Assembly: GCA_021158665.1 (NCBI GenBank)
Contig: JAGGUE010000057.1
Location: 1-32,428, forward strand
Direction: 5' to 3'
Origin: Candidatus Aenigmatarchaeota archaeon
Lineage (GTDB): Archaea > Aenigmatarchaeota > Aenigmatarchaeia > GW2011-AR5 > JAHLMP01
Length of the DNA stretch: 32,428 nt
The notes beneath the pieces are model-generated. The model was not told the origin of the DNA and searched no databases. It saw only the letters and a list, made by a program, of their open reading frames with translations. The translations under genes were made by a program, and so were the position numbers. Below are positions 3,495-20,957 of the stretch, piece after piece. The stretch's first letter is position 1. Each line of letters starts with the position of its first letter.

Positions 3495-3680
3495 ATGACA
3501 AAAGGAACGCCGTCTTTTGGCAAGCATAACAAAATAATTCATATAAGATGCAGGCGCTGTGGCAGGCATTCATATAACATAAAAACCAGTATCTGCTCCG
3601 CTTGCGGATTTGGCAAATCAAAAAAACTGAAAAACGAAGCGTGGAAATGGAAAAGTGTTAACAGAAACAGAAAATACTGA
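3495..3680 (+). CDS. rpl37e: 50S ribosomal protein L37e
   Basis: 61 aa: [29 protein letters not shown], the zinc-ribbon signature of L37e. A GAGGT Shine-Dalgarno sequence lies 8 nt upstream. Confidence 0.9.
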
Positions 3681-3800
3681 TTCTCATTTAAGATTTTAAT
3701 TTATTTAAGTAAGGTATATAAATAACATGGGCCTGTAGCTCAGTCTGGTAGAGCGTTCGAATTTATGGCGATGCTCTTAACCGAACGGTCGCGGGTTCGA

Positions 3801-4308
3801 AATACCTTTCTCTCTTAAAAAGAGAGAAAGACTATCGGAAAGAGAGAAATTCGGGCGAAAAATCAAAAGATTTTTCGCATATATTATTGAGAGAAAGACC
3901 ATTGGAAAATCGCAGGAGGAGTTCAACAAAAGAAGATAAAATAATTGAACTCCGACGAGAAGAGAGCAGGAGGTTTTTGCTAAATAGAAAATAAAATAAC
4001 AGAAACCGACGAGAAGAGAGCAGGAAGAGTTCGCCAATTACAAATAATATAAAAGTGAACTCCGACGAGAATCGCAGGAGGTTTTCGCCAATTTATAAAT
4101 AATATAAAAGCCGAAAACCGACGAGAACGGAGAAAAAATTCGGGCGAAAAATCAAAAGATTTTTCGCACATAATTAAGAAAAAGACCAAAGGAAAAAAAT
4201 ATCTTGTTATAATTAATAAAAAAATAATATATGCGAATGAAATGAGCCAAAGTCTTTCTTTTTCCGCAAGTCTTTTTCTTTCTCTGAAAGAAAAAGGTTG
4301 AACGAGAA
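3801..4308 (+). other. giant modular T-loop intron/insert of tRNA-Lys (family shared with tRNA-Val)
   Basis: The 5' 47 nt (ATACCTTTCTCTCTTAAAAAGAGAGAAAGACTATCGGAAAGAGAGAA) are identical to the start of the insert in tRNA-Val. About 110 nt at the 3' end are near-identical. The interior contains 2 A-modules and 4 B-modules. Terminal hairpins lie at 3805-3829 (11 bp) and 4272-4296 (10 bp). Confidence 0.7.
3905..4126 (+). repeat. tandem array of four 54-56-nt hairpin modules (B-modules) inside the tRNA-Lys insert
   Basis: CCGACGAGAA recurs at 3951, 4005, 4061 and 4117, and GCAGGAG/GCAGGAA at 3911, 3965, 4019 and 4073. Each unit is GCAGGA + 8-9-bp stem + AT-rich 18-20-nt loop + stem + CCGACGAGAA. 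The stem sequences differ between units but stay complementary. Confidence 0.8.
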
Positions 4309-4349
4309 TCCCGTCGGGCCCACTTATTTTCTAAACCAGAGGGACTTGC

Positions 4350-5258
4350 ATGTTAATGGATTCTGAAAATCTCAGAGAGCTTATTAATATTGTGAGCAAA
4401 CGGTCTAAACATAAATCAAAGATATTATTGCAGATACCCGAAGGGCTAAAATGCAATGTCATTGAAATAATAGATAACCTGAAAAGGTTGGGGCATGACG
4501 TGGTTTTGTCAGCCGAGCCATGCTACGGAGCTTGTGATATAAGGGACTATGAAGCAAAAAAAATGGGTTGCGATCTTATTCTTCATCTCGGGCATAGGAA
4601 ATTCTATAAGAAATTTAAGACAATTGTTCCAGTAATCTACTTCCCAATAAAATTGAGTGTAAAATATAATCCGGTTGAACTTAAAAAAATTTCATACAAA
4701 AAAATAGGCCTTATATCCACGGTCCATCATGTTGAAACGTTAAAAGACATTTCGAGGGATTTGAAAAATATTGGCAAGAGCTCTGTAATCGGCGGTGAGA
4801 TACTTGGCTGCTACACAAAAAACGCGTCTAAAATAGAAAAAAACGTCGACTGTTTTCTATTTGTTGGTAGCGGGGAGTTCCATGCGTCTGGACTTGTAAC
4901 GGAAAAGCCCGTTTATATTTTTGATTTGGAAAAAAATAAAGTTAGGTTAATAAATAAAATGAAAAGATTGAAAATATTGCATGCCAATTTGGCAAAATTA
5001 GATGATGCAAAAAAAATTGGAATCTTGATTTCAACAAAAAAAGGTCAATTCTTTGATTTAAATAGAATTGAAAAATTAAAAAATAAGTTGAAAAAAATGA
5101 ATAAAAAAGCATACGTCTTAGTTATGGACAACATAACAAATGAAAAACTAACCGGGCTAAAGATTGACTATTTTATAAATACGGCATGCCCGAGAATAGT
5201 TGAAGACGGGTTTGACAAGCCAGTTATAAACGCGCGCGACCTTTTCGGGAGTATATAG
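4350..5258 (+). CDS. dph2: diphthamide synthesis enzyme Dph2 (2-(3-amino-3-carboxypropyl)histidine synthase)
   Basis: 302 aa. The LQIPEGLK motif, conserved Cys residues (EPCYGACD, TACPR) and the length are typical of archaeal Dph2. Confidence 0.8.
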   Translation: MLMDSENLRELINIVSKRSKHKSKILLQIPEGLKCNVIEIIDNLKRLGHDVVLSAEPCYGACDIRDYEAKKMGCDLILHLGHRKFYKKFKTIVPVIYFPIKLSVKYNPVELKKISYKKIGLISTVHHVETLKDISRDLKNIGKSSVIGGEILGCYTKNASKIEKNVDCFLFVGSGEFHASGLVTEKPVYIFDLEKNKVRLINKMKRLKILHANLAKLDDAKKIGILISTKKGQFFDLNRIEKLKNKLKKMNKKAYVLVMDNITNEKLTGLKIDYFINTACPRIVEDGFDKPVINARDLFGSI

Positions 5259-5378
5259 CTGTCTTGACATATATGAATAAGGTCCATGGACATTAGCGTT
5301 ATTTATGGCGACCGACCCGTTAATTTTGCAATGCCTATATACAATTCACAAAAAATAAAAAGAAAAAAAAGAAAAAAA

Positions 5379-5612
5379 TTACTCTTGTTTTTCTTCCGAG
5401 CCCCCTTCTGTTGCTTCTTCTGTCTTCTCTTCTTCTGGCTGTTCCTCCTTTTTCTCTTCCGTTACCTCTTCCTTTGGTTGCTCTTCTGTTTCTTCTTTCT
5501 TCTCTTCTTCTGGCTGTTCCTCTCCTGACTGTTCTTCTGACACTTCCTCTTGTTTCTCTTCTTCCTTAGGCTGTTCTTCTATTTTATTTTCTTCGTCAGT
5601 CATTTTTTTCAC
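5379..5612 (-). CDS. small, extremely acidic low-complexity protein (E/K/Q/P repeats)
   Basis: 77 aa with repeated EEQPEEEK / EEQPKEE units. It has an ATG start preceded by AGGTGA 7 nt upstream. I recognise no family. Confidence 0.45.
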   Translation of the reverse strand: MKKMTDEENKIEEQPKEEEKQEEVSEEQSGEEQPEEEKKEETEEQPKEEVTEEKKEEQPEEEKTEEATEGGSEEKQE

Positions 5613-5804: not shown

Positions 5805-5875
5805 GCATCAATGATCTAACGGTATGATATCAGCTTCCCAAGCTGATTATGCGGGTTCGACTCCCGCTTGATGCA
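5805..5875 (+). tRNA. tRNA-Gly(CCC), no intron
   Basis: Acceptor GCATCAA/TTGATGC+A, anticodon arm TCAGC TTCCCAA GCTGA, T-arm GCGGG TTCGACT CCCGC. Length 71 nt. Confidence 0.9.
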
Positions 5876-8611: not shown

Positions 8612-9101
8612 TGGGTCCGGGGAGATTTCCGTTCAACCTTTTTCTTTCAGAGAAAGAAAAAGACTCTGGTTCATTTCATTCGCATATATTTATTTATATT
8701 GTAATTATAACAAGACTTTTTTTCCTTTGGTCTTTTTCTTACCGTTCTCGTTGGAGTTCACTTTTTATATTATTTATAATTGGTGAACTCTTCCTGCGAT
8801 TCCGATAGTCTTTTTCTTTTCTTTTTAATATATGCGAAACGAAGTTTCGCCCGAATTTCTCTCTTTCCGATAGTCTTTCTCTCAATAATATATGCGAAAA
8901 ATCTTTTGATTTTTCGCCCAATTTTTTTCTTTTTCCTTTGGTCTTTCTTTTTAATACTTTTTAATAATATATGCGAAACGAAGTTTCGCCTGAACTTCTC
9001 TCTTTCCGATAGTCTTTCTCTCTTTTTAAGAGAGAAAGGTATTTCGAACTCCCGACCTTTGCCACGTCAAGGCAACGTCATAGCCACTAGACCACGGACC
9101 C
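8612..9101 (-). tRNA. tRNA-Val(GAC) with an approximately 417-nt insertion/intron in the T-loop (about 59/60)
   Basis: Minus-strand reading: acceptor GGGTCCG/CGGACCC+A, anticodon arm TTGCC TTGACGT GGCAA, variable AGGTC. The T-stem is GGGAG (9053-9049) / CTCCC (8624-8620). The T-loop is TTCGAA (9048-9043) plus T (8625). Confidence 0.8.
8626..9042 (-). other. giant modular T-loop intron/insert of tRNA-Val (same family as in tRNA-Lys)
   Basis: It has the same 47-nt 5' end and the same 3' segment as the tRNA-Lys insert. The interior has 3 A-modules (hairpins 8834-8850, 8894-8917, 8973-8989) and 1 B-module (8744-8803). The 5' terminal hairpin is at 9014-9038. Confidence 0.7.
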
Positions 9102-15043: not shown

Positions 15044-16276
15044 TCACGGTTGGTTCCATTCTATTTCATAATATTTATTTCTCGAGCCCGGCAGGTCTAT
15101 TCGCTTTGCAACATAGTATGTTACCGATGTTTCGCGGTCAGAAATTCCGATCATCAATCTCAGCCCGAGTTCGTCGGCCTTGCTCAATGCAGATGCCAGC
15201 TCCTTTCCACCGAGCTTTTCATCCTCTGTAAACGAGATTATGGCAAATTTCGGGTTGCTTTCGCCCGGCTTTTCAAGCCCGATTTTCTTTCTATGGTAAC
15301 CGATAAAATCTATGAGTTTTCCCTCTTTGATGTAATCGGACTCTTTCATGCCGGGGATTGCCATGATAAATGTCTTGCGGACGGAATGCGCAACTCGAAC
15401 AACCCGCGCCCACTCGCTCATAATCATGCTCACGTTTTTTGGAAAAACATGGATCACGTGCTTGGAGTGAATCCACTTCGACTTTTCACGATTTGGAGAG
15501 GCGCCCGGAAAATACAGCCTGAAATGGGTGCCGAACTTAAAACCCGTCTTTATGATATAACCCCTTGCCCTCCAGTCCTCATAAACATCGAACAATGCAT
15601 TAACATTTTTTTGATATTCTTTTATCAAGTCCATGAGCTCTTCAAAGCCCATGATTTTTTCATTCTTATTATTTTTAACGGCAAATCCGTTTTTTGCCAA
15701 TAAAAGCGTTTCCATGAAGTCGAATTTAAGGATATTGTCGCGGTGTTGTTGTTTGTATACGCCCAACTGGCCGAGCCAAAATCTTTCAAACAATTGTTTT
15801 GTTCTCTCATCGCATCTCGCTATCGAAACCATATCTTCTGGCAAATAGAGCAGCTCGGTATCCAATGGCGGCAACGCAAACTTCCCGGAAGGATATTTAA
15901 CAACCGGGCTCCTGCCGAAATTTTTAAGCTCCATTCTTTCTGGAAATTGCGGAATAAGTCCCCTGTCCCGCCAGTCGCGATATAAGTTGTATCTCGCAAA
16001 TATTCTCGACTCGCCTGAAAAAATATTTATTAAATCAGAAAAAACAATATTTTTGCCCTGTTGCGCGCACGGGCACTTTCTTATGTTGACGAGATACAGC
16101 GCCTCGATCGGGCTCAATTTTAGTTTTCCGTTTTCTCTTTCTCCATAAAATCCCTGCTCAAGAGCGCTTATGCTGTTTGAGTCGTTTGCCACGACAACGC
16201 CGTTCTCCAAAAACAAAGATGGCTTCGGTTTTCGAATAGCGGGCTGTTGTATTTGTTTCTCTTTTTTTCCTTTCAT
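15044..16276 (-). CDS. endA: tRNA-splicing endonuclease EndA, long multi-unit form
   Basis: 410 aa, versus roughly 180 aa for a single archaeal EndA unit. The catalytic unit is in the middle (GYIIKTGFKFGTHFRLY ... HSKHVIHV ... SVRKTFIMA), which supplies the Tyr/His/Lys triad. An N-terminal EndA-like unit and an extra C-terminal unit (FAIISFTEDE...LRLMIGISDRETSVTYYVAKRI) flank it. Confidence 0.8.
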   Translation of the reverse strand: MKGKKEKQIQQPAIRKPKPSLFLENGVVVANDSNSISALEQGFYGERENGKLKLSPIEALYLVNIRKCPCAQQGKNIVFSDLINIFSGESRIFARYNLYRDWRDRGLIPQFPERMELKNFGRSPVVKYPSGKFALPPLDTELLYLPEDMVSIARCDERTKQLFERFWLGQLGVYKQQHRDNILKFDFMETLLLAKNGFAVKNNKNEKIMGFEELMDLIKEYQKNVNALFDVYEDWRARGYIIKTGFKFGTHFRLYFPGASPNREKSKWIHSKHVIHVFPKNVSMIMSEWARVVRVAHSVRKTFIMAIPGMKESDYIKEGKLIDFIGYHRKKIGLEKPGESNPKFAIISFTEDEKLGGKELASALSKADELGLRLMIGISDRETSVTYYVAKRIDLPGSRNKYYEIEWNQP

Positions 16277-19863: not shown

Positions 19864-19947
19864 GGGCCGGTAGTCGAACGGCAAGACGCTGCCTTCGCAT
19901 TTTTCCGAAACAGGCAGAGATTCCGAGTTCGATTCTCGGCCGGTCCA
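19864..19947 (+). tRNA. tRNA-Ala(CGC) with a canonical 12-nt intron at 37/38 (19900-19911)
   Basis: The acceptor GGGCCGG/CCGGTCC+A gives the G3:U70 Ala identity pair. Anticodon arm CTGCC TTCGCA[tttttccgaaac]A GGCAG, T-arm CCGAG TTCGATT CTCGG. Confidence 0.9.
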
Positions 19948-20868: not shown

Positions 20869-20957
20869 TGGGCGAGGGGAGATTTGAACTCCCGACCTCT
20901 CGGTATCTGATATTTAAATTATCAGCCGAGCGCTCCACCAGGCTAAGCTACCCGCCC
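20869..20957 (-). tRNA. tRNA-Ile(GAU) with a canonical 15-nt intron at 37/38 (20905-20919)
   Basis: Minus-strand reading: acceptor GGGCGGG/CTCGCCC+A, anticodon arm CTCGG CTGATA[atttaaatatcagat]A CCGAG, T-arm GGGAG TTCAAAT CTCCC. Its 3' end abuts the nadK stop. Confidence 0.9.

Follow-up and report, generated by a model that had tools for sequence, protein, structure and literature searches.

The window analysed here is a stretch of 32,428 nucleotides from Candidatus Aenigmatarchaeota archaeon (assembly GCA_021158665.1, contig JAGGUE010000057.1), and its forward strand carries, at 3729-4322, a tRNA-Lys(CUU) gene that is interrupted twice, by 13 nt at tRNA position 30/31 and by 507 nt in the T-loop at position 59/60. 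Exon 1 (3729-3759; tRNA positions 1-30) opens at G3729 and reads GGGCCTG TA GCTC AGTCTGGTA GAGC G TTCG; the 13-nt insert occupies 3760-3772; exon 2 (3773-3801; positions 31-59) reads G CTCTTAA CCGAA CGGTC GCGGG TTCGAA; the 507-nt insert, non-coding and modular, occupies 3802-4308; exon 3 (4309-4322; positions 60-73) consists of T, CCCGT, CGGGCCC, and A, with a T-rich tract next to it. A first-pass annotation of this DNA had proposed a tRNA-Lys(CUU) with both insertions, and a canonical cloverleaf does form once both are removed; its right-hand coordinates stand, and its left-hand ones were 1 nt too low, the true 5' end being G3729 and not 3728.

No tRNA-Lys is found in the raw sequence by ARAGORN or by Rfam at the gathering threshold, and the Rfam tRNA model at a permissive threshold matches only 3729-3799 (18.6 bits). 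With the 507 nt removed in silico, ARAGORN reports tRNA-Lys(ctt) with a regular cloverleaf and the T-loop TTCGAAT. The last 29 nt of the spliced tRNA-Lys (GGTCGCGGGTTCGAATCCCGTCGGGCCCA, across the junction) equal the uninterrupted orthologues of two related loci, L006 (an NCBI metagenome-assembled genome, MAG) and L003. The insert contains no credible open reading frame (ORF), as had been claimed: the sole ORF of at least 80 aa is an 86-aa TTG ORF on the opposite strand, made of repeats.

It is extremely unlikely that the 507 nt are a self-splicing group I or group II intron, another ribozyme-bearing intron, or the scar of an integrase-mediated insertion into the 3' half of a tRNA gene. Inserts of 0.2-0.5 kb do fall in the size range of group I introns, and tRNA 3' halves are classic integration sites; however, Rfam searched at E<=10 over 3650-4400 matched no intron or ribozyme family in the insert region. 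Group I introns end in G, and group II introns follow GUGYG...AY; the ends of the insert fit neither, and its last nucleotide is no conserved G, being A in all copies described below (or G/A if the ambiguous junction is shifted). Neither a direct repeat of the tRNA 3' part (att) nor an integrase is present, and viral, phage, and plasmid collections gave no match, the element being absent from IMG/VR (three patterns), INPHARED phages, and PLSDB plasmids. Weak Rfam matches to CRISPR-DR54, PyrR, and ylbH were rejected as chance matches to hairpins of the insert.

The 13-nt intron at 30/31 folds into a relaxed bulge-helix-bulge (BHB) motif, with GAG/CUC as outer helix, CGUU/GGCG as central helix, AU/G as 3' bulge (slash, splice site), and the 5' splice site in a loop. 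It is identical in the orthologue of L009 (JGI sample Ga0190306), a sister strain that shares 97% identity with the window over 1.35 kb. In L006 this site holds a 13-nt intron of different sequence, whose central helix covaries (CGAC/GUCG vs CGUU/GGCG in the window); L003 lacks an equivalent at 30/31 and has a 35-nt intron at 37/38 instead. Judged by these orthologues, the 13-nt intron is older than the T-loop intron.

The window holds a second gene interrupted in the same way. A repeat scan of the window uncovered, on the reverse strand at 8612-9101, a tRNA-Val(GAC) (exon 9101-9043, intron 9042-8626, exon 8625-8612) that was not detected by any tRNA finder; its homologous intron of 417 nt lies at the same T-loop site, has UUCG/CGGA as central helix and AAU as bulge, and is 94% identical to the Lys intron in its first 77 nt and 88% in its last 59 nt. 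The insert is therefore a member of a family rather than a singleton. This second copy, the repetitive and mobile-like nature of the insert, and prior knowledge of 59/60 as an intron site were all missing from the first-pass annotation.

A metagenome scan with the terminal hairpin of the element gave nine real loci, mostly on four large contigs of Ga0190306. In the sister strains the element interrupts, at TTCRAA/A, the genes for tRNA-Ala(UGC), Gly(GCC), Gly(UCC), Arg(UCG), Pro(CGG), and the orthologous Lys(CUU); a Leu-type and a Val(UAC) 5' half show the same junction. At least nine different tRNA genes carry the insert at 59/60, with intact exons, and intron length runs from 167 to 507 nt across the family (167-323 nt in the Ala, Gly, Arg, Pro, Leu-type, and Val(UAC) sister copies). 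Splicing in silico yields a tRNA by ARAGORN in seven of the eight complete copies, namely the two Lys orthologues, Val, Ala, the two Gly, and Arg, and also for the Pro gene. The exception is L011, a 1.9-kb contig in which the Val(UAC) 5' half is joined to the 3' exon of another tRNA (TCCGGCCCTCTGCA), and which is either a chimera, possibly repeat-induced, or a rearrangement. A junction 20-mer searched against GTDB representative contigs gave just one chance match, in a Cyclobacteriaceae MAG.

Further introns were seen in the same sets of genes. In the window, the ARAGORN call 'tRNA-??? (tttt)' at 19864-19947 on the forward strand is by inspection a tRNA-Ala(CGC) with G3:U70 and an anticodon-loop intron of about 12 nt; tRNA-Ile(GAU) at 20869-20957 on the reverse strand has an intron of about 15 nt; four of the five tRNA genes of the window contain introns, the sole exception being Gly(CCC) at 5805-5875. 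The Val(UAC) 5' half of L011 (1423-1810, reverse strand) also has an intron, of about 18 nt, and just downstream of the interrupted gene (440-1410) lies a unit resembling an insertion sequence, bounded by the inverted repeats GGGTTTGTCCAATAA.

Minimum free energy (MFE) and centroid folds of the 595-nt Lys precursor contain the acceptor stem, the T-stem GCGGG/CCCGU, an AAU bulge, and a 4-bp helix UUCG/CGAG between T-loop and intron end; beyond a 4x4 internal loop (AAAU/UGAA) they continue into an inner helix ACCUUU (3804-3809)/AAAGGU (4293-4298). The 5' strand of the central helix is UUCG at 3796-3799 (tRNA positions 54-57), its 3' strand CGAG at 4303-4306, and the bulge AAU at 4307-4309, with the 3' cut predicted after A4308; cleavage 3' of A59 and 3' of the second bulge A would restore UUCGAAU. 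The fold z-score is -8.2 for the Lys precursor (0 of 100 shuffles as good) and -7.9 for the Val precursor. With its 5' splice site placed in an internal loop, the motif departs from the strict 3-4-3 (hBHBh') pattern and is a relaxed BHB of hBH type; this relaxed form, with T-stem, AAU bulge, and 4-bp helix, is present in eight of eight copies. The 4-bp helix, the AAU bulge, the regenerated TTCGAAT, and the inner helix had all been described correctly in the first-pass annotation; its 5' 'AAA bulge' is instead one side of the internal loop.

Junctions were aligned, and their pairing statistics computed, over the eight complete copies. The central helix is paired in all eight, the partner of UUCG being CGAG, CGGA, or CGAA, and the Pro gene, with the T-loop UUCAAAU, has an intron end UGAA-AAU, a compensatory change from G57:C to A57:U. 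Of the junction cells, 98.3% are pairing, compared with 89% in column shuffles (0 of 500 as high), and the value drops to 38-67% when the partners are slid by one to three columns. Partition-function probabilities of the central helix are 0.5-0.97 in seven of the eight copies, above the controls with shuffled interiors. The two bases on the 5' side of the helix strand are always AA and never UU, an arrangement that limits the helix to exactly 4 bp beside a 3-nt bulge, which is what the tRNA-splicing endonuclease EndA requires of a substrate. As the same architecture is present in eight complete copies, and in view of the pairing statistics, chance is excluded. TTCGAA is palindromic, so that in most copies pairing and duplication of a target predict the same sequence; only the UUCA/UGAA copy separates the two, and it agrees with pairing.

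These junctions bear on whether the genes are pseudogenes, inactivated by a transposon resembling a miniature inverted-repeat transposable element (MITE) that prefers the T-loop sequence and is never spliced out. The element is like MITEs in being short and non-coding, in its terminal inverted repeats, in its many dispersed copies and partial copies outside tRNA genes, and in the assembly breaks that it causes. We nevertheless consider inactivation very unlikely. At least nine isoacceptors of a small DPANN genome would be affected, Val(GAC), Ala(UGC), and Gly(GCC) among them; the exons are intact and competent for a cloverleaf; a broad-specificity EndA of matching type is encoded; and the covariation of the intron 3' end with position 57, together with an exact 4-bp helix beside the 3-nt bulge, is sensible only under selection for recognition by EndA. 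The element also departs from MITEs in that almost every copy occupies the same tRNA position, exact to the nucleotide, and that its ends are shaped, with the host exon, into a substrate for EndA. No target-site duplication was found, the exon flanks being TTCGAA/.../T with no duplicated bases, and an apparent CGAA repeat at the junction follows pairing, not duplication, in the TTCA/TGAA copy. The claim that this is an EndA-type intron with a relaxed BHB, rather than a dead gene, drew support from every test run.

The 507-nt insert is 33% GC and 64% purine. Its modules are, in order along the forward strand: a 5' terminal module of ACC and the hairpin CUUUCUCUCUU-AAA-AAGAGAGAAAG (3804-3830), identical in the tRNA-Val copy; a first copy of the inverted repeat GCGAAAAAUC-AAAA-GAUUUUUCGC (3855-3878); four tandem direct repeats of 50-54 nt (3912-4127), each a hairpin unit of GCAGGARG, stem, AT-rich loop, stem, and CCGACGAGAA; a second copy of GCGAAAAAUC-AAAA-GAUUUUUCGC (4144-4167); and a 3' terminal hairpin, the inverted repeat CUUUUUCUUUC-UCU-GAAAGAAAAAG, followed by GGU (4272-4298). 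Terminal hairpins have the general form ACC-(CUUUCUCUCUU...AAGAGAGAAAG)-GAC; the tandem units are spaced at 54-56 nt, with stems that covary between units; the hairpin arrays contain tandem G-A motifs and linkers rich in GGAGG. A CRISPR-like reading of the tandem units was rejected, the 'spacers' being the conserved hairpins themselves. Readings of the modules as C/D box or H/ACA RNAs were rejected by eye, there being no RUGAUGA/CUGA pair with a terminal stem, and so was a kink-turn (K-turn), the G-A/G-A pairs at the hairpin bases lacking a 3-nt bulge and C-stem.

In the L009 and L002 copies, at least 31 nt at the 3' end of the intron are a perfect reverse complement of its 5' end, and in the Lys copy of the window the ends are complementary over 53 nt at 72%. 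In RNA, these terminal inverted repeats would pair into one long stem, bringing the splice sites close to each other. The Lys intron also contains five U5 tracts, about 10 per kb against a density of 2.4 per kb for coding sequence; no tract exceeds five. Both features, the complementary ends (perfect in L009) and the roughly fourfold enrichment of U5 tracts, are compatible with functionally split genes, in which transcription would stop in the insert, the 3' part would be made from an internal promoter, the two RNAs would pair through the inverted repeats, and EndA and ligase would splice in trans. Split tRNAs of Nanoarchaeum equitans and Caldivirga are trans-spliced through a BHB cut by EndA, and share with the present genes the complementary flanks that form a BHB and, in the case of N. 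equitans, a DPANN host. AT-rich TATA-like stretches 60-100 nt upstream of the 3' exon and the mixed halves of L011 point the same way. Split genes are nonetheless improbable here: in all eight complete loci the two halves follow each other directly, in the right order and with the same orientation, for which a single transcript is the simpler reading; U5 tracts are common within genes of the same genome; the internal promoter is not demonstrable; and L011, at 1.9 kb, may be a repeat-induced chimera.

The presumed excision enzyme is encoded in the same window. The ORF at 15044-16276 on the reverse strand has the N-terminal and catalytic domains of a tRNA-intron endonuclease, and its residues 30-410 align with the three-unit epsilon2 EndA of ARMAN-2 (PDB 4fz2, E=6e-107), which makes it an epsilon2-type three-unit EndA by domains and structure template. 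According to Fujishima et al. (2011, PMC3239211), the ARMAN-2 enzyme cleaves two kinds of substrate in vitro, a strict BHB and an intron of 13 nt at 59/60 whose motif is of the relaxed hBH type; some tRNAs of ARMAN-2 have one T-loop intron or two (PMC3239211). That intron and its enzyme are a direct precedent for both the position and the enzyme assumed here. The BHBs cut by EndA can also enclose entire 16S and 23S rRNAs of 1.6-3 kb (PMC7714728), so that the length of the insert is no mechanistic obstacle. Papers of 2011-2018 confine the three-unit epsilon2 EndA to Micrarchaeum and Mancarchaeum; the EndA of the window has 1299 database homologues at E<=1e-30, the named ones of which belong to Aenigmatarchaeota and Micrarchaeota. 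In relatives, EndA lies in a gene cluster with SBDS, exosome, and RtcB genes; RtcB falls outside the present window.

The Dph2 of the window gave no record in an exact look-up; its homologues place the window in Aenigmatarchaeota, and the gene order L37e, tRNA-Lys(CUU), Dph2 is conserved. In L006 and L003, with 64-66% Dph2 identity, the T-loop of tRNA-Lys(CUU) is uninterrupted, and the T-loop intron is hence a recent gain. Neither L024 and L026 (70-76% EndA identity) nor L006 gave partial tRNA matches suggestive of T-loop inserts, in what is a small sample. Among close strains the introns vary: the orthologous Lys intron has 260 nt and one hairpin unit in L009, compared with 507 nt and four units in the window, while the flanks are 97% identical; the Val intron has three arrangements of modules among L017-L020 (JGI 3300017593 and 3300016457), whose EndA is 100% identical. 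All four of these contigs end inside the tRNA-Val intron, from about 17176, which points to repeat-induced assembly breaks together with hypervariability at the strain level. Such fast turnover of modules argues for selfish or neutral filler and not for a constrained RNA.

A repetitive element inside which four related contigs end, and downstream of which the synteny of tRNA-Lys differs between the window and L009, might be thought a repeat misplaced into a tRNA gene by the assembler. There is, however, hardly any chance of this: both junctions recur, the same at 5' and 3' end, in independent assemblies from different samples and pipelines (L002, from ENA; L009; L017-L020, from two further JGI samples), and the order of L37e, tRNA-Lys, and Dph2 in the window is that of distant relatives. 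The break in synteny (L009 1380-1500, reverse strand, vs window 4323-4350) falls exactly at the 3' end of tRNA-Lys, which is followed by Dph2 in the window, L002, L003, and L006 and by unrelated sequence in Ga0190306_1000031; it reflects either recombination between dispersed intron copies or a chimeric assembly.

Altogether, 14 copies or fragments of the element were seen, 12 of them in tRNA T-loops and two, both partial, elsewhere (after a 23S 3' end; intergenic). About 190 kb of related DNA contained no transposase with matching ends and, in a further difference from MITEs, no autonomous partner element. In L007, the 23S 3' end runs straight into about 100 nt of the 5' module (CCCTCAAAT/ATACC...), and these lie within the processing stem. 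The element ends were considered as this stem and rejected: the upstream copy sits in a tRNA gene (Ala) of the opposite strand that is itself interrupted, and another pair, of 14 nt, forms the true processing stem. The 23S gene of L007 (4318-9849, reverse strand) spans 4988 nt compared with a model of 2987 nt, with insertions of about 2 kb that hold a 291-aa ORF without Pfam match; RNase P RNA lies about 160 nt beyond the element fragment. The intergenic fragment, at L013 13030-13167 (forward strand), comprises a terminal hairpin, one hairpin unit, and a GC hairpin, and is flanked by the direct repeat (A/T)TGCATCAC, with the motif TTTTTCAAAATGCATCACC twice just upstream. A separate repeat in the window, the CT-rich low-complexity tandem repeat at 5407-5556 (forward strand; periods of 9-36 nt; overlapping ORF 5286-5528), probably codes, on the opposite strand, for a repetitive acidic/lysine-rich segment.

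We conclude that the 507-nt insert is quite probably a very long, protein-spliced BHB-type intron, belonging to a mobile, MITE-like family that occupies position 59/60 of many tRNA genes in one Aenigmatarchaeota lineage. What carries this conclusion is the anatomy of the insert, its recurrence, the conserved and covarying pairing, the intact exons, and an enzyme of the right type. In the mechanism proposed, the gene would be transcribed from an AT-rich, promoter-like box about 25 nt upstream, through the insert, to the T-tract after A73; the T-stem would form, and U54-R57 of the T-loop would pair with the last four intron nucleotides before the AAU bulge; the complementary intron ends and the hairpins would keep the two splice sites together; the window-encoded EndA would then cleave at the two sites given above, and an RtcB-type ligase would join the exons to UUCGAAU and probably circularise the intron. 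The intron itself would be selfish and mobile, an ORF-less element with terminal inverted repeats and with hairpin modules that quickly duplicate and recombine; it may spread to the same conserved T-loop site of other tRNA genes without target-site duplication, and would be tolerated because splicing removes it.

Several observations weigh against this interpretation. The internal loop that holds the 5' splice site, 4x4 in the Lys copy and 2x2 in the sister copies, takes the place of a canonical 3-nt bulge; the Arg copy has low predicted probabilities (T-stem 0.09, central helix 0.21); the MFE fold of the Val precursor does not contain the splice motif; and the inner helix is entirely missing from the L014 copy. 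The U5 tracts could prompt some premature termination by the archaeal RNA polymerase. Short-read assemblies break at repeats or may scramble them, which makes the count of four units less certain than the junctions. That the insert is transcribed, cut out with ligation of the exons, and circularised, and how the element spreads, is inferred rather than observed.

We also put forward, as an unlikely extension, that EndA and RtcB turn the excised introns into stable, rod-like circular RNAs of viroid size, which would act as a mobile element at the RNA level by reverse splicing into other T-loops and subsequent fixation in DNA through reverse transcription or recombination; alternatively or additionally, the hairpin arrays might give the circles a cellular role, such as the sequestration of proteins or ribosomes. 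If true, spread by reverse splicing would explain both the specificity for a single nucleotide position and the lack of target duplications.

The position, the relaxed motif, and the enzyme class of the proposed protein-spliced intron are already known. Pre-tRNA-Cys(GCA) of ARMAN-2 (Ca. Micrarchaeum acidiphilum), likewise a DPANN host with an epsilon2 EndA, has an intron at 59/60 with a relaxed hBH-type motif (PMC3239211); that intron is a single case of 13 nt, in contrast to the present homologous family of 167-507 nt in at least nine tRNA genes, with hairpin modules, inverted-repeat ends, and strain-level length variation. The Haloferax tRNA-Trp intron of 103 nt is excised by EndA, is released as a circular RNA, and encodes a C/D box sRNA (PMC7714728); it shows that such introns can carry a structured RNA, but it is a single-copy intron of about 100 nt, in the anticodon loop and with a strict BHB (PMC7714728). 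Inspection of the present introns showed no C/D, H/ACA, or K-turn signature. In Thermoproteales, homologous non-canonical BHB introns reportedly occur in different tRNA genes, implying transposition, in work that PMC3239211 and PMC4033280 cite as Sugahara (2008) and Fujishima (2010). These are said to be introns of tens of nt, at many positions, in Crenarchaeota with a broad-specificity (alpha-beta)2 EndA, and reportedly have no modular repeats or inverted-repeat architecture, unlike the family described here; homologous BHB introns across tRNA genes and a broad-specificity EndA are common to both. Full-text searches of the literature on long tRNA introns in Aenigmatarchaeota and DPANN, and on MITE-like archaeal tRNA introns, found nothing comparable, and the size of 0.17-0.5 kb, the homologous multi-copy family, the architecture of inverted repeats and hairpin arrays, and the strain dynamics appear to be undescribed.

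With 167-507 nt, these introns would exceed severalfold the length usual for archaeal tRNA introns, which is tens of nt up to about 100 nt (31-103 nt in Haloferax, PMC7714728), and their site is the T-loop, not the anticodon loop. The family would represent a BHB intron acting as a recently active, multi-copy mobile element, confined to one lineage, absent in relatives, and varying between near-identical strains, and the system allows direct tests of how BHB introns originate and spread and of how introns and transposons are related. It likely widens the substrate range of the epsilon2 endonuclease, an enzyme type widespread in Aenigmatarchaeota and Micrarchaeota. Kaneta et al. (2018) noted incomplete tRNA sets in DPANN genomes and suspected unidentified disrupted genes (PMC5829648). 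The present family offers a concrete cause of such incompleteness, in that its genes are missed by ARAGORN and by Rfam at the gathering threshold and assemblies break inside them; for annotation, the remedy would be to search for tRNA halves joined across a T-loop BHB.

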